Source: Ignicoccus pacificus DSM 13166
Lineage (GTDB): Archaea; Thermoproteota; Thermoprotei_A; Sulfolobales; Ignicoccaceae
Direction: 5' to 3'
DNA: 32,000 nucleotides
Assembly (NCBI GenBank): GCA_025340205.1
Contig: CP006868.1
Location: forward strand, 690,001-722,000
Part shown: piece by piece, positions 4,843-28,315 of the stretch
Position numbering within the stretch: the stretch's first letter is position 1
How the letters are laid out: each line of letters begins with the position of its first letter
Position numbers and translations under genes: made by a program
Notes under the pieces: generated by a model
Databases searched by the model: none
What the model was told of the DNA's origin: nothing
Seen by the model: the letters and a program-made list of their open reading frames with translations, nothing else

Positions 4843-5832
4843 GTGATTGATATGGCGTTAAAGGAAGTAGGACCCATGGAGCCGATTAGGACCCACATGC
4901 AGATTCCAAGGGAGGAGCTCATAGCTCCCGGTCATTCAGCTTGCCAAGGTTGTGGTCACTTCATAATAGTGAGGCACTTACTGAAGGCAGCCGGACCTAA
5001 CACGATAGTGGTAAACCCCACAGGATGTCTAGAGGTAGTGACCACCGTCTTCCCCTACAGCAGCTGGAAGGTGCCGTGGATCCACGTCGCATTCGAGAAC
5101 GGCGGTTCGGTAGCCTCTGGAGTGGAGGCTGCCATCAAGAGCTTACAGAAGAAGGGTATCCTCCCTAAGGATGAGAGAATAAACGTGGTGGTCTTCGCCG
5201 GAGACGGAGGTACCGTTGACATAGGTTTCCAGAGCCTCTCGGGTATGTTCGAGAGAAGGCACAAGGTTGTCTACGTACTGCTCGACAACGAGGCCTACAT
5301 GAACACCGGTATACAGAGGTCCGGATCCACGCCCTACGGAGCTTGGACCACCACCACTCCGGTAGGGAAGAGATGGAAGGGAGAGTGGAGAGTTAGGAAG
5401 GACATGATGCAGATAGCGGTGGCTCACCATGTACCCTACGCCGCCACCATAAATCCAGCTTACCCAGTAGATATGTACAATAAGATGGTGAAGGCTCTGA
5501 AGGCCGAGGGACCCGCCTTCCTCCACGCCTACAGCCCGTGCCCGACCGGATGGAGGTTCGATCCCTCTCTAACCGTGGAAGTAGCGAGGATGGCCGTCCT
5601 AACCGGCTACTGGGTGCTGTACGAATATGATCATGGAAACTACAAGGTCACCGTACCTGTGCTGAAGAGGAAGCCGGTGAGGGAGTTCGTGAAGATGCAA
5701 GGCAGGTTCAGGCACATGACGGAAGAACAGATCAAGAAGCTACAAGAGATCATCGACGAGCAAGTAGAGCACATAAACAAGCTAGTAGGAAAGACTGTAA
5801 TTGGACCGGTAGTGGAAGAACAGAAGAAGTGA
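4843..5832 (+). CDS. porB: 2-oxoacid:ferredoxin oxidoreductase, beta subunit (TPP-binding)
   Basis: CxGCG at the N-terminus and the TPP motif GDGGTVDIGFQSL...LDNEAYMNTGIQ. The likely true start is ATG 4852, preceded by GGAGGTGA at 4839-4846. Confidence 0.9.
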   Translation: MIDMALKEVGPMEPIRTHMQIPREELIAPGHSACQGCGHFIIVRHLLKAAGPNTIVVNPTGCLEVVTTVFPYSSWKVPWIHVAFENGGSVASGVEAAIKSLQKKGILPKDERINVVVFAGDGGTVDIGFQSLSGMFERRHKVVYVLLDNEAYMNTGIQRSGSTPYGAWTTTTPVGKRWKGEWRVRKDMMQIAVAHHVPYAATINPAYPVDMYNKMVKALKAEGPAFLHAYSPCPTGWRFDPSLTVEVARMAVLTGYWVLYEYDHGNYKVTVPVLKRKPVREFVKMQGRFRHMTEEQIKKLQEIIDEQVEHINKLVGKTVIGPVVEEQKK

Positions 5833-7245: not shown

Positions 7246-8385
7246 GTGAAGCTCTCCTTGAAAAGGACTGGGGAGTGGGGGTATACAGGTGCTTATGAGT
7301 TGAATCTAGCGCTACTACTGATAGCGATACCATCAGTAATTTCCATCATAGCCTACTTCATACCGTCAGTAAGGGAAGGGAAGAGGATATTCTCTCCAAT
7401 GCCGGGAATGATAGCCTTGAGAATAGGACTAGAGGGAAGGTCGAGGAGGACCACGAGTAAGAGTACTATGTTCATCCTGAACTTGTTCATATTGCTATTC
7501 GCAGTTGCACTGGTATTCGGATATAAGATAATTATAGAGGCGCTGGTTTCAACCCTTCTCCCCAAGTCAGCAGCGAGGGGTCCTGTATTCGTTCCCATAA
7601 TACCGGGAGTGACCATTCCCCTTAATCAGATGGTTACCTTAGTGTGGATTATAGCGGTTAGCATTGCGTTACACGAGTTAGCTCACTACTGGAGTGCCGT
7701 GAGGCAGGGGATTAAGGTCAAGGGCGGTGGCATAGGTTGGTTCCTCTTCTTTCCCATAGCCTTCGTCGAGCCCGACGAGGAAGAACTCATGAGAGCACCA
7801 TTAATAGATAGAATTAGAGTCTACAGCGCCGGTCCAGCTACCAATATGGCACTAGCTCTACTCACTTTGCTTCTCATTCAATACAACACTCATCCGGGTA
7901 TCTACGTCGTTGGGGTAGAGAGGGGTTCGGTGGCTTGGAAGGTTGGCATAAAGCCAGGTGATGTTATAGTGGAAATCAACGGAGTAAAGGTAACGAGCTT
8001 GAAACAGCTTGGTTCTATTATAGAGAAGGCTGGGAGATTTGAGCTCGTAATAGATAGGAACGGAAAACTCATTCACTTGGAAGTCGTAAAGAAGAAGGGA
8101 AGGTTGGGCATTTACGTTACCCCTTGGGCCCCGAGCGGACTATTCAGATCCTTGCCCCCAGAGACAGTAATGGGATTAGTAATGACTTTGTTCTGGATGA
8201 ACGGCATTAACACAGGCTTAGCGGTAATTAATGCCTTACCTCTCTTCATAACTGATGGAGGAAAGGTCTTCTTAGATATAGGGTCGAGATTCAAGAAACT
8301 CGAAAAACCCTTAATGATACTACAAGCAGTAACGGTAATCATGGTAGTTGAGGTATTGATAAACTCTCTCATCATGCTGAGGTAG
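7246..8385 (+). CDS. M50-family site-2 protease-like membrane metalloprotease with PDZ domain
   Basis: HELAHY (HExxH) lies in a TM segment. PDZ-like GIKPGDVIVEINGVKVTSLKQL. C-terminal NALPLFITDGG (NxxPxxxxDG). Multiple hydrophobic helices. Confidence 0.85.
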   Translation: MKLSLKRTGEWGYTGAYELNLALLLIAIPSVISIIAYFIPSVREGKRIFSPMPGMIALRIGLEGRSRRTTSKSTMFILNLFILLFAVALVFGYKIIIEALVSTLLPKSAARGPVFVPIIPGVTIPLNQMVTLVWIIAVSIALHELAHYWSAVRQGIKVKGGGIGWFLFFPIAFVEPDEEELMRAPLIDRIRVYSAGPATNMALALLTLLLIQYNTHPGIYVVGVERGSVAWKVGIKPGDVIVEINGVKVTSLKQLGSIIEKAGRFELVIDRNGKLIHLEVVKKKGRLGIYVTPWAPSGLFRSLPPETVMGLVMTLFWMNGINTGLAVINALPLFITDGGKVFLDIGSRFKKLEKPLMILQAVTVIMVVEVLINSLIMLR

Positions 8386-9307
8386 CTTCTTCGTAGACCT
8401 TCTTTATTGCCTCGGCTGCCCTCTTCAGTCTGGCCCTCTCCTCAGGAGAGAGGATCTCTGGCATAGGCCTAGGCCTTCCGGTAATCACTGTCGGAACGGA
8501 TACCGCTACCCTTCCCACACCCTCTATGTTGTATCTCACAGAAACTGGAATTATCTTGGCCTCGTTCGCTAAATAGGATACTACTATCTCTTGAAATGTG
8601 GCAGCCGGTCCCCATATGGTCGCTCCTTGTTTAGCTATGATGCTCGCGGCTACCTCCTTCACGTACTCCTCTATCTGCTCATGACTGATGTTAAGCCCCT
8701 TCTCTTTAATGTATTCATCTATTTGTTGACCCTTTATGGTAACGGTGCTCCAGGCTACGAAGGCTTCCTCTCCGTGCTCTCCTACAACGTATCCATCTAC
8801 CGCCGCTATTGGCACGTTTAGGAGCTCGCTGACGGCTGCCCTGAACCTAAAAGTGTCTAGGCTTGTCCCCGTTCCCATAACGGTGCCCTTGTTACCTATA
8901 ATGTCATCGAGTACCATGGTCATAGCATCTACAGGGTTAGTTATCACGAGGTAGAAGGCTCCAGGATTTCTATCCCTTAGCTTGTCTCCTATGCTTCTTA
9001 TGATATCGGCGTTTACCTTGGCTAGGTCCCTTCTGCTCATTCCCGCCTTCCTAGGCTTCCCCGCCGTTATGACTATGGCATCAGCGTTCTCTATTTTCTC
9101 GATCTGATCATACGCCTCGACGTTTATACTTCTCCTAAACACAGCAGCAGCATGCTTGATGTCCTCCATTACTCCCTTGCTGAGGCCAGGTACTATGTCA
9201 ACTAGGGTCATTCTAGCGACTCCCGGAACTATGGCCATGGTATAAGCGAAGGCCGCTCCTACCCTTCCGGTACCCACGACGGCAACCTTGTAGGGGACAC
9301 GTGGCAC
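8372..9307 (-). CDS. mdh: Malate (LDH-like) dehydrogenase
   Basis: KVAVVGTGRVG Rossmann motif, ITAGKPRKAGMSRRDL, ITNPVD and GEHGE. GTG start preceded by GGTGA. Confidence 0.85.
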   Translation of the reverse strand: MPRVPYKVAVVGTGRVGAAFAYTMAIVPGVARMTLVDIVPGLSKGVMEDIKHAAAVFRRSINVEAYDQIEKIENADAIVITAGKPRKAGMSRRDLAKVNADIIRSIGDKLRDRNPGAFYLVITNPVDAMTMVLDDIIGNKGTVMGTGTSLDTFRFRAAVSELLNVPIAAVDGYVVGEHGEEAFVAWSTVTIKGQQIDEYIKEKGLNISHEQIEEYVKEVAASIIAKQGATIWGPAATFQEIVVSYLANEAKIIPVSVRYNIEGVGRVAVSVPTVITGRPRPMPEILSPEERARLKRAAEAIKKVYEEATSA

Positions 9308-9366
9308 TCTAGACTCACCACTAAGGTAGTAACTTAGGCAGATTAAACTAGTTTATGCTGTATATA

Positions 9367-9554
9367 CTCGGAAGGCCGGAGAGGGGTGTTCGACCCCTGT
9401 CCGGCTCCCGGTCTTCATCATCCGCTCGTCGGCGGCCTCTGACCGGTCCATCCTGGGGGACGTTAACGTATTAGTCGGAGGAGCAGAAAAGCGTTGAGCC
9501 AGCCGATGAGGAGTGGCGACGGCTAGATCGGTGAAGAAAGGATACCTCGCTGAG
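9367..9554 (+). ncRNA. Unassigned GC-rich structured RNA: either an independent sRNA or the structured 5' leader of rnp3
   Basis: About 62% G+C by hand count over 9371-9550, versus AT-richer flanks. Closing helix 9367-9375/9545-9554. 11-bp hairpin 9376-9404 with a GUUCG loop. Long arm with 9425-9433/9502-9510 (9 bp) and 9412-9419/9530-9537 (8 bp). No credible ORF. AT-rich box ATTAAAC at 9342-9348 upstream. Confidence 0.45.
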
Positions 9555-9562
9555 GTGGTAGC

Positions 9563-10138
9563 TTGAAGTACTTCGTGGAGAGCTTTGCCAGAGGAGATGA
9601 AGCCGCAGAGGCTTCGCTCAAGTATTATCTAGCAGTCGTCTGTGATGGTTGTAAGTCGAAAGGGTTCATCCCTAGAACTACCGTGAACACGTGGAAGGGA
9701 AAGAGAACGAAGACCTTAGTCTTCGCCTCTCCGAGTGAAAGAGAAGCGCTTCGAGCCGCAGCTCGCCATCGTTTTGTAGACGTCGTCAGTTTCGGTGGAA
9801 AGACCTTGAGATATCTAGATGAAAGTGAAGTACTCTTAGTGCTTCAAGGGGGGAAGGGAATAGAAATAAGAATAAACGAAGTCCTAGAAAGATGGAAGAG
9901 CTTAAACGATTTGAAGAGAGTAGTAAACTTACTGCTGAACAAATGGGTTCCTACCCTCTTAACATGTTCTCCTTCATCGAGGTATGAGTTATGCCATCCC
10001 TTCCAAATTATCTCCTTAATAGCTACCTTGGGGTACAAAGAGGAAGACGTCGCCGCTCTATGGGGCCTCGGAAGCTCTTGGTTGATATCACTAATTGAAA
10101 GGAAGATGGGGATGAAGAAGGTTTTAAGAAGTGATTAA
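9563..10138 (+). CDS. rnp3: Ribonuclease P protein component 3 (Rpp30 family)
   Basis: The C-terminal half (LLTCSPSSRYELCHPFQIISLIATLGYKEEDVAA) aligns with the remembered Pyrococcus Rpp30 segment ([34 protein letters not shown]). Size is about 190 aa. TTG start with GAGGTGG 5 nt upstream. Confidence 0.75.
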   Translation: MKYFVESFARGDEAAEASLKYYLAVVCDGCKSKGFIPRTTVNTWKGKRTKTLVFASPSEREALRAAARHRFVDVVSFGGKTLRYLDESEVLLVLQGGKGIEIRINEVLERWKSLNDLKRVVNLLLNKWVPTLLTCSPSSRYELCHPFQIISLIATLGYKEEDVAALWGLGSSWLISLIERKMGMKKVLRSD

Positions 10139-10164: not shown

Positions 10165-11307
10165 CTATATTCCAATAAACGCGGTCTTTAGGTAATCTTC
10201 GATCCCCACCCTTGTGGGGTGATCAGGGGCGGAGCCCCTAACCTCCATAACCCTGTAAGGCTCATCCAAGCTCTCATATATTGCCTTAAGGAAGAGAGAT
10301 CTGCTCATCGATCTGGAGCAAGAGGAGAGTATGAGGAAGTTCCTCCCCACCGCTCTAGCCCCGGCGTAAGCTGACCTATAGAGTTCGTACCCATTCCTTA
10401 GGTCATCCATCAGCGCCGGCGGATCCACGCTAACTACATCAAAGCTCCTTCTTCTCTTCATAGTCTTTCTCAAGTACTTCCACGCGTCCTCTTTAACTAT
10501 TTCTACCTTATTTTCCGGGATATTATTCAATTTCAAGTTCTCCCTCAACAACTTGAGCGCTTGTTCGTCCGTGTCGACAAATACTACTTTCTTAGCTCCT
10601 CCATGAAGAGCGTTAAGTCCGAACCCTCCTGTATAGGAGAATAAATCTAAAAAGGAGGAGTTCTTGGAAATCCTTTGAGCTAGGACTCTGTTTTCTCTTT
10701 GATCGAGGTAGAGTCCAGTCTTCCTTCCTCTGACGTCGACCTTGTACTTAATTCCCTCTACGTCCACTTCCACTACCGTCTCCTTCTTAGAGCCGATGAG
10801 TGTCCTCTCCCTAGGCCTTAGTCCGGCCTTACTCCTAACCCTTTGGACGCTCTTCTCAACTACCGTATCGACTCCCGTTACCTTCTTCACCTTTGCGGCT
10901 ATCTTGTCCACCAGTACGTCTATAGCGGCGCTTGAAGATTGTAAAACGGCTATATCCTTGTAAATGTCTACTACCAATCCCGGGAAGAGGTCTCCATCGC
11001 CGTGAACCAAACGATAGGCGTTCCAGTACCCCACACGCTCTCTTAATTTCTTGGCCCTCATTAGATTTTCCTCTATTAGGTCATCGATGCTTGAAGGACA
11101 TGGTTCGAAGGAGAGTATCCTAACTCCTATCCTGTCCCAGATACCGCACCCCAGGACGTAGTCCTCAGATACCAACTCCACCATCTGACCAAGCTTTATC
11201 GGCTTCTTCTCAACCCATCTCTTATAAATTATTAGTTCACCTCGCTCTATTGCCTTAACTCCATCACCATAAACTTCAACGTGAAGCATAGTCTGCTTCC
11301 TACTCAC
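10165..11307 (-). CDS. PUA-domain class I SAM-dependent rRNA (m5C) methyltransferase, RlmI-like
   Basis: SAM-binding LDLFSYTGGFGLNA, FVDTDEQAL and the catalytic-region FDVVSVDPP. The N-terminal PUA-like region and the 380-aa size fit the RlmI/PH1915 family. Confidence 0.8.
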   Translation of the reverse strand: MSRKQTMLHVEVYGDGVKAIERGELIIYKRWVEKKPIKLGQMVELVSEDYVLGCGIWDRIGVRILSFEPCPSSIDDLIEENLMRAKKLRERVGYWNAYRLVHGDGDLFPGLVVDIYKDIAVLQSSSAAIDVLVDKIAAKVKKVTGVDTVVEKSVQRVRSKAGLRPRERTLIGSKKETVVEVDVEGIKYKVDVRGRKTGLYLDQRENRVLAQRISKNSSFLDLFSYTGGFGLNALHGGAKKVVFVDTDEQALKLLRENLKLNNIPENKVEIVKEDAWKYLRKTMKRRRSFDVVSVDPPALMDDLRNGYELYRSAYAGARAVGRNFLILSSCSRSMSRSLFLKAIYESLDEPYRVMEVRGSAPDHPTRVGIEDYLKTAFIGI

Positions 11308-18781: not shown

Positions 18782-18888
18782 GGGCCCGTAGCTCAGCTAG
18801 GACAGAGCGCCGGCCTCCTAACCACATGCGGGGTTCCGTAAGGGAAGAAAGCCGGTGGTCCGGGGTTCAAATCCCCGCGGGCCCGCCA
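18782..18888 (+). tRNA. tRNA-Arg(CCU) with a canonical roughly 29-nt intron after position 37; CCA encoded
   Basis: Acceptor GGGCCCG/CGGGCCC. D arm GCUC..GAGC. Anticodon stem CCGGC/GCCGG with loop CU-CCU-A, interrupted at about 18821-18849. T arm CGGGG-UUCAAAU-CCCCG. Discriminator G plus CCA. Confidence 0.9.
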
Positions 18889-28214: not shown

Positions 28215-28315
28215 GGGCCCGTAGCTCAGCTTGGTAGAGCGGCGGGCTCTTAACCCGTAGAGGCGGGGCTTGACCGTCGCGGAAGTCCCGGGTTCAAATC
28301 CCGGCGGGCCCGCCA
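28215..28315 (+). tRNA. tRNA-Lys(CUU) with a non-canonical roughly 24-nt intron in the variable region (near position 45/46); CCA encoded
   Basis: Acceptor GGGCCCG/CGGGCCC. D arm GCUC..GAGC. An intact anticodon arm GCGGG-CU-CUU-AA-CCCGU. An extra approximately 28261-28284 sits between AG and GUC of the variable loop. T arm CCGGG-UUCAAAU-CCCGG. G plus CCA. Confidence 0.85.

Follow-up and report, generated by a model that had tools for sequence, protein, structure and literature searches.

What is encoded by the G+C-rich block lying between the genes mdh and rnp3 is the question raised by a stretch of 32,000 nucleotides (nt) from Ignicoccus pacificus DSM 13166 (assembly GCA_025340205.1, contig CP006868.1, positions 690,001 to 722,000 of the forward strand; hereafter the window), in which the interval 9367-9554 was taken in the original prediction for a closed three-way RNA of about 190 nt. 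The dimensions given there were borne out: the intergenic region between mdh and rnp3 spans 9308-9562, i.e., the stated 255 nt, and the G+C content of 9367-9554, put at about 62%, is 0.617, against 0.477 in the whole window, with 0.709 in the 5' 86 nt of the interval. The block is, however, composed of two co-oriented elements placed side by side, and not of a single closed 190-nt RNA: a canonical double-guide archaeal C/D box small RNA (sRNA) at 9502-9556 of the plus strand, orthologous to sR147 of I. hospitalis, and, upstream of it, a conserved module at 9374-9459 (Table 1). The loci of relatives were gathered via the Rnp3 and mdh homologues, giving ten lineages of the Ignicoccus clade: the window itself, used as the reference for identity figures; I. 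islandicus CP006867 (L009 = L008); I. hospitalis KIN4/I CP000816 (L061); a hospitalis-like metagenome-assembled genome (MAG; L003 = L007); a partial contig (L004); and further MAGs or metagenome contigs (L001 = L002, L005 = L006, L010 = L011, L013, and L014 = L015, L017).

The features of the C/D class are present in the 3' third of the interval and only there, with box C near the 5' end and box D near the 3' end, the GA/GA pairs of the kink-turn (k-turn), the internal boxes D' and C', and guide spacers of 11 and 12 nt. In a cmscan search of 9250-9700 at E≤10, 11 archaeal C/D box families matched 9502-9555 from end to end, the nearest models of Rfam being sR28, sR5, sR1 and sR47; the best match, to sR28 (24.4 bits, E = 2.2e-4), stays below the gathering score of 39, and none of the curated Rfam families reaches its gathering score with this sRNA, which was not counted against the class because the archaeal sR families are guide-specific. 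In comparison with archaeal C/D sRNAs, box C (AUGAGGA) and box D' (UAGA) are variants in which the GA dinucleotides of the k-turn are retained, and in the alignment of the ten orthologues (74-93% identity to the window) the GA cores of all boxes are invariant. The differences found among the guides (AGGAYRCCUC, GGYGACGG) are transitions, so that G.U pairing to one target would still be possible.

The published counterpart, IHOsR147, is situated at position 1,126,304 on the plus strand of I. hospitalis, with an RNA-seq coverage of 1650 and with 16S G1058 (D guide) and 16S U1038 (D' guide) as predicted targets (PMC4644070 suppl. 1). Both RNAs have the four boxes, guides of 11-12 nt, a short terminal stem, a length of ~55 nt and a place directly upstream of rnp3; the D' guide and the core of the D guide are identical in the two, and the N+5 guide nucleotides of the window, A9519 (D') and C9545 (D), are complementary to U and G, in agreement with the sR147 prediction. 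The predicted 16S target sites of the two guides are 20 nt apart. By the established mechanism of the family, the C/D and C'/D' k-turns would bind L7Ae, and then Nop5 and fibrillarin, and the guides would direct 2'-O-methylation of the nucleotide that faces the fifth guide position counted back from each box: a U for D' (U1038 in I. hospitalis) and a G for D (G1058). This part of the interval is an ordinary, already described kind of RNA.

Since 9502-9556 is a separate C/D box sRNA, missed earlier, the three-way architecture dissolves. The closing helix drawn at 9367-9375/9545-9554 does appear in the minimum free energy (MFE) fold of the single sequence, but its 3' strand is taken from the sRNA (9545-9549 finish the D guide, 9550-9553 are box D, and with 9554 the 3' side of the terminal stem begins), and its 5' strand is unconserved, CUCGG being changed to CGUAU or CGCGU in L003 and L005. 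The long irregular arm with its GGAG/AGCA loop (9477-9485) falls into a linker that cannot be aligned between lineages (43-65% identity to the window), and duplexes of the module with the linker or with the sRNA were not above dinucleotide shuffles in eight species (z from -1.6 to +2.3). The sole survivor of the claimed architecture is the hairpin 9376-9404, slightly larger than had been drawn (9374-9406) and with an inner stem that covaries; the resemblance of its tip to a tRNA T-arm or minihelix was not upheld, the loop UGUUCGA being off the T-arm register and both ARAGORN and the Rfam tRNA model being negative here. Likewise, the statement that the RNA fits no family is retained for the 5' ~90 nt, for which a new sRNA or a cis-leader is still a live option, and is given up for 9502-9556, a textbook C/D box sRNA with a published orthologue.

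The module is, as judged by comparison of the lineages, a G+C-rich structured RNA element of ~86-95 nt that is found only in Ignicoccus and matches no known RNA family. Both the sRNA and the conserved block upstream of it are present in all ten loci, and with a covariance model built on the conserved block (R1) each of the ten, I. islandicus and I. hospitalis KIN4/I included, yields a single copy (58-109 bits). No further significant R1 match was obtained in the 32-kb window or in the mdh locus of Pyrolobus, in which the synteny differs; a protein scan of genome contigs for a wider family returned one MAG only, no further lineage was gained when the metagenome collection was scanned for a DNA pattern, and a viral scan gave 42 chance pattern hits, of which 0 were significant by R1. 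The core of the block (CGACCCC...AYCC, 62-63 nt) shares 75-84% identity with the window, and the module is as conserved as the neighbouring sRNA, with its unpaired segments and tail included. It stands out by a G+C spike of 0.65-0.71 from flanks of ~0.46 and by a purine content of 31-37% in the core of all lineages, compared with ~65% in the linker and the sRNA; the constraint on the pyrimidine-rich unpaired parts favours a specific partner over a generic protective hairpin. The earlier remark that no open reading frame (ORF) is present holds in the sense of a conserved one: the small ORFs, of 39 and 32 amino acids (aa), are broken by 1-nt indels in relatives, and a coding function is thereby excluded. 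A weak second R1 match (18 bits, E = 0.0014) lies in I. hospitalis at 5427-5520 (+) of L061, inside the TruD ORF and without a counterpart in the window; it is probably due to chance.

In the predicted structure, the 12-bp hairpin H1 is followed by the 6-bp helix P2, which encloses the hairpin H2 and the two sides, J2 and J3, of an internal loop. In the ten-sequence alignment A7, 89.8% of the cells pair in this structure and four pairs show double changes; the covariation score was reached by 0/500 shuffles, and when the structure was slid by 1-3 columns as a control, 25-53% of the cells paired. Of the predicted helices, P2 is the best supported one, with 94.9% of cells paired in the ten sequences and 3/6 pairs changed on both sides (UC/GA, CC/GG and GA/UC across lineages in the inner two pairs). 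H2 is paired in 97.5% of cells, with a loop of 3 to 6 nt and with C-G, U.G or C.A as its fourth pair. The closing pair of the H1 inner stem covaries (A-U five times, U-A, G-C), and the islandicus clade has, instead of GGCCG, an outer 5' strand AGUUG, which by manual reading pairs with the invariant CGGCU via A-U and U.G. Compensatory changes, for which an alignment of relatives had been proposed as the check, are accordingly seen in P2 and in the H1 inner stem, whereas the closing helix and the long arm are unconserved. As to the unpaired parts, J2 reads YUCWUY in 9/10 lineages and UUCCCCGA in I. hospitalis; the tail is UCCAUCC in all lineages except for the islandicus clade, where it is UCCCAUCC, with GUCC(C)AYCC invariant in the alignment, and the UGGGGG that follows is confined to the pacificus and hospitalis clades. 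A k-turn or k-loop was found neither in the two hairpins nor in the internal loop: the GA positions covary as ordinary P2 pairs or are absent.

Table 1. Features of the mdh/rnp3 intergenic region and its flanking genes, in window coordinates
Feature	Position	Strand	Sequence	Remark
mdh (malate/lactate dehydrogenase)	8372-9307	-		GTG start at 9307
mdh Shine-Dalgarno-like motif	9319-9314	-	GGUGAG	6 nt before the GTG start; read from sequence
TATA-like box A	9343-9350	+	ATTAAACT	putative promoter of the module transcript
Further TATA-like elements	9352-9367	open	TTTATGCT, GTATATAC	in the AT-rich 25-mer
H1 outer stem	9374-9380/9400-9406	+		in the MFE fold of most orthologues
H1 G.G mismatch	9381/9399	+	
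H1 inner stem	9382-9386/9394-9398	+		covaries
H1 loop	9387-9393	+	UGUUCGA	
P2, 5' strand	9408-9413	+	CCGGUC	pairs with 9441-9446
J2	9414-9421	+	UUCAUCAU	8-nt pyrimidine-rich 5' side of internal loop, nearly G-free
H2	9422-9435 (stem 9422-9425/9432-9435)	+	CCGC / loop UCGUCG / GCGG	
J3	9436-9440	+	CCUCU	5-nt 3' side of internal loop; CCUYN conserved
P2, 3' strand	9441-9446	+	GACCGG	pairs with 9408-9413
Tail	9447-9459	+	UCCAUCC, then UGGGGG	
Linker	9460-9499	+		variable, purine-rich, 40 nt
A/T-rich octamer	9485-9491		AGAAAAG	in the linker, 3' of the module
sRNA terminal stem, 5'	9502-9504	+	GCC	
sRNA box C	9506-9512	+	AUGAGGA	
sRNA D' guide	9513-9523	+	GUGGCGACGGC	11 nt
sRNA box D'	9524-9527	+	UAGA	
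sRNA spacer	9528-9530	+	UCG	3 nt
sRNA box C'	9531-9537	+	GUGAAGA	
sRNA D guide	9538-9549	+	AAGGAUACCUCG	12 nt
sRNA box D	9550-9553	+	CUGA	
sRNA terminal stem, 3'	9554-9556	+	GGU	
rnp3	9563-10138	+		191-aa ORF
PUA-domain SAM methyltransferase	10165-11307	-		RlmI/Methyltrans_SAM type

Rfam scans at E≤10 were made on segments of 451 nt and 109 nt of the window and on the I. islandicus block, and for the block in two species they gave chance microRNA or partial matches only. In layout, a likeness is seen to the archaeal H/ACA guide sRNAs, in which P2, J2/J3 and H2 would stand for the lower stem, the two-sided pocket-like loop and the upper stem, with a single-stranded 3' tail beginning ~14 nt from the upper stem; the module differs from them by the lack of a k-turn or k-loop in the upper stem, where H2 has no tandem G.A motif, by the lack of an ACA/ANA box (the tail being UCCAUCC/UCCACCC), by a lower stem of 6 bp only, and by loop nucleotides next to the upper stem that vary between species, unlike those of a guide to conserved rRNA, and no meaningful Rfam match to this class was obtained. 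A tRNA-like element was rejected, there being no cloverleaf and the 'UCCA' after P2 being UCCCA in the islandicus clade. The self-cleaving ribozymes (hepatitis delta virus (HDV)-like, hammerhead, twister, pistol, hatchet) gave no Rfam match at E≤10, and although H1 resembles the P1 of the HDV-like fold (GGCCGG...CCGGCU with G.U), no space is left for the 5' strand of a P2 before the inner hairpin. The idea of an anti-box-C role for J2 was dropped as well: YUCAUC is complementary to GAUGA/GAAGA in nine lineages, but J2 of I. hospitalis departs from it, and no more complementarity was obtained than with shuffled controls. A C/D sRNA on the minus strand (AUGAUGA ... CAGA/CGGA) can be read in the window only, and the search for mimicry of the 16S target of the sRNA or of the 16S ends met with short unconserved word matches only.

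The placement of promoter-like elements bears on how the two RNAs may be made. In five lineages (window, L001, L003, L010 and L009), TTAAAC precedes H1, with its first T at a distance of 31-34 nt from the first nucleotide of the hairpin, and I. hospitalis has the TATA-like CTTATACG ~28 nt upstream of H1; these spacings are as expected if an archaeal transcript started at the base of H1, and it is from the archaeal distance between TATA box and transcription start that box A is proposed as a putative promoter. The further elements at 9352-9367, when read on the minus strand, probably constitute the mdh promoter. Both lie in an AT-rich 25-mer, TTAAACTAGTTTATGCTGTATATAC (9343-9367), which is near-invariant in the window, L001, L009, L010 and an additional contig, L012; its conservation exceeds that needed for two TATA boxes, and it may therefore also be the binding site of a regulator. 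The energies of Alifold and of the single sequences slightly favour the plus strand at 37, 70 and 90 °C, and the plus strand is regarded as the likely functional strand of the module.

The contig L012 (1-325, minus strand) carries an mdh that is 92% identical to that of the window and keeps the AT-rich 25-mer up to GTATATA, after which unrelated AT-rich DNA follows; neither the block nor the sRNA occurs within the 260 nt at hand. An insertion or rearrangement may have taken place exactly at the 5' edge of the block. In L001 (5001-7980), the convergent pair of rnp3 and the methyltransferase gene is inverted with respect to all other lineages, with one breakpoint just 3' of the sRNA, so that the block and the sRNA remain beside mdh and face the methyltransferase gene; because the inversion leaves them with mdh, the unit of block and sRNA is not tied to rnp3.

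The linker between block and sRNA varies from 40 to 65 nt in length across lineages, and within it an A/T-rich octamer follows the block at a distance of 20-30 nt from its 3' end in 8/9 lineages, nearly fixed in position though the rest of the linker is unconserved (window, L001, L003, L005, L009, L010, L013, L014, L061). It could be the promoter of rnp3, a promoter of the minus strand or the remnant of a terminator. In L003 and I. hospitalis, the sole A/T-rich element of the linker is ~14 nt before the 5' end of the mature sRNA; since this is too close for the sRNA to initiate there, the expressed sRNA would have to arise upstream, through the block on the plus strand. By its position, the same element would be well suited to start an rnp3 mRNA inside the sRNA.

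The overlap of sRNA and rnp3 may be observed in L003 (4960-5010), where the ATG of rnp3 lies inside the D guide and box C' (GGUGAAGA) takes the position of the Shine-Dalgarno sequence. In I. hospitalis (L061 2760-2800), the codon matching this ATG is AUA, and the rnp3 start must therefore be further downstream, at the GTG of ..FVES. The rnp3 called there (L061 2194-2928, CP000816.1, minus strand of the locus) has 244 aa, with a GTG start in the H1 loop, and spans the block, the linker and sR147. The rnp3 orthologues are shorter, at 186-205 aa, and in other species a stop codon interrupts the frame (TGA at window 9440-9442); this gene model is therefore probably over-extended by ~50 codons.

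On balance, the interval is best explained by the C/D sRNA accompanied by a separate, so far unclassified structured RNA with which it would share a promoter. The module would be transcribed on the plus strand from the conserved TATA box ~31 nt upstream of H1 and would serve as a protein- or RNA-binding module; its promoter would also supply the downstream sRNA, which is promoter-less in the hospitalis clade and would be freed by assembly of its ribonucleoprotein (RNP) and trimming, as in the archaeal tRNA-sRNA dicistrons, and the 3' end of the I. hospitalis module RNA would be expected near ...AUCCUGGGGG. Promoter-less sRNAs are co-transcribed behind tRNA genes in archaea, and such dicistrons have been described for tRNA-Ser of I. 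hospitalis, tRNA-Pro of T. tenax and tRNA-Val of N. equitans (PMC7994747, review). The likeness consists in a promoter-less C/D sRNA placed directly behind a co-oriented structured non-coding RNA with a promoter; the differences are that the upstream partner is not a tRNA (no Rfam or ARAGORN match, no cloverleaf), that a variable linker of 40-65 nt intervenes, and that co-transcription is here a proposal drawn from the layout. A bolder version, held only tentatively, is that the module is a new genus-restricted stable non-guide RNA with a partner of its own, or the first dedicated cis-acting domain to be described for the assembly or processing of an archaeal C/D sRNA precursor. As a non-guide RNA, it would engage the partner by the pyrimidine-rich loops and the UCCAUCC tail, its strong promoter having been co-opted by a hitch-hiking C/D sRNA.

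Several observations weigh against the co-transcription of a separate structured RNA from the plus strand. The wobble test (counts of G.U versus A.C) is balanced between the strands: the plus strand has its U.G pairs in H2 and H1 of the islandicus clade, while its C.A pairs in P2 (L004, L010, L013) and in H2 (I. hospitalis) become U.G on the minus strand, and the A/T octamer of the linker is equally well placed for a minus-strand start at the end of the block. Several linkers contain T-runs (L013, L014), at which transcription of the module RNA could end before the sRNA is reached. The significance obtained from the shuffles is overstated, since the ten sequences belong to one genus and are phylogenetically related, and the folding z-scores are weak (about -2 for 188 nt, and between -1.8 and +0.85 for the block when eight species were folded); the support for the structure is thus comparative, not thermodynamic, folding energy alone being weak. 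The single-stranded parts are conserved in their pyrimidine-rich composition more than in exact sequence, and a partner for the unpaired parts and the tail was sought and none was found.

Among the other explanations, a leader of the pre-sRNA or of rnp3 is the most likely, followed by an RNA of the minus strand and by an element acting at the level of DNA. In the first of them, which we consider unlikely, the module would merely form the structured 5' leader on a transcript of the pre-sRNA or of rnp3, degraded after release of the sRNA, with a role in stability or processing, e.g., as a 5'-terminal hairpin against 5'-to-3' decay or as an aid to k-turn assembly. This would suit the start of H1 at 0-4 nt from the predicted transcription start, the location of the sRNA, which immediately precedes the rnp3 start or overlaps it, and the arrangement of L001, in which the unit is again upstream of and co-oriented with a gene, that of the methyltransferase. 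However, conservation at the level of the sRNA, extending to unpaired parts and tail, exceeds what would be required of a generic protective hairpin, the complementarity of the module to linker and sRNA does not rise above shuffled controls, and the anti-box-C motif YUCAUC is missing in I. hospitalis. The work of Tripp et al. 2017 is, moreover, said to show that the maturation of C/D sRNAs is independent of context, which was also counted against a leader.

A functional RNA on the minus strand, purine-rich, structured and running from near 9459 in the direction of mdh, is a little more doubtful still; it would be an independent sRNA or a long regulatory leader of mdh. The module is always found beside mdh, even after the rnp3 inversion of L001; the octamer and the C.A pairs mentioned above speak for this strand, on which the unpaired parts would be rich in purines, a usual trait of thermophile transcripts. 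Against it, TATA-like boxes and a Shine-Dalgarno-like motif belonging to mdh lie close to the gene, and L012 keeps these without the module; the outer stem of H1 and H2 of the islandicus clade would hold C.A mismatches; the consensus and single-sequence energies lean slightly the other way; and the C/D-like reading (AUGAUGA, CAGA) is peculiar to the window.

It is very improbable that the block is an element of DNA, whether as nested inverted repeats bound by a regulator of the divergent promoters of mdh and the RNA or as a recombination site. The balanced wobble pattern, with no preference of strand, would agree with this, as would the divergence of L012 exactly at the 5' edge of the module and the breakpoint of L001 just past the sRNA; yet nested helices with variable loops, compensatory changes in a 6-bp stem whose strands are 27 nt apart and a G+C spike are typical of RNA genes of hyperthermophiles and not of operator sites, and the promoters do not flank the block, which lies downstream of them.

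That the whole 190 nt form one reduced RNA akin to that of the signal recognition particle (SRP) or of RNase P, as had been entertained, may be judged as already refuted: the likeness to these G+C-rich hyperthermophile RNAs amounts to the adjacency of rnp3 and to a few superficial 6-7-nt words (GGAAGGCCGG like CR-I, CCGGCU like CR-V and P4, GGAG/AGCA like SRP helix 8) at unconserved positions, GGAAGG being UGAGG, AGAAGG or absent in relatives and the helix-8 motif falling into the unconserved linker, whereas the covariance searches originally advised for both families returned no match at gathering score or at E≤10 (for RNase P, types A, M and T were considered), the size is wrong (~300 nt for the SRP class), no more than a 5-bp hairpin is enclosed by the 'P4-like' stem, and the interval is a composite one, with a C/D sRNA as its 3' third, the 5' end of which is processed in I. 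hospitalis.

The neighbourhood is rich in genes of RNA modification and processing, comprising the PUA-domain S-adenosylmethionine (SAM) methyltransferase, Rnp3, TruD and the C/D sRNA, the TruD gene being a neighbour of the locus in L003, L009 and L061. The match of the 191-aa ORF to the Pfam family RNase P p30 (Rnp3) is sub-threshold (32.7 bits versus a cut-off of 35). Elsewhere in the window, two tRNA genes with introns are located at 18782-18885 (+; 56.5 bits with the Rfam tRNA model, insert of ~31 nt) and at 28215-28312 (+; 62.8 bits, insert of ~25 nt); they are the only matches of cmscan at gathering score in the whole window, for which ARAGORN reported zero tRNA genes.

One third of the supposed mystery RNA is, in summary, a methylation guide of the ordinary kind, for which two 16S targets are predicted, and the remaining ~90 nt are a delimited, covarying RNA element confined to Ignicoccus and described in no database. 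Very few non-guide small RNAs have been characterised in the hyperthermophilic Crenarchaeota. A module with a promoter-like box that apparently feeds a promoter-less sRNA provides a test case for the way in which archaeal C/D sRNAs gain transcription, and it also bears on what else such transcription units may produce.

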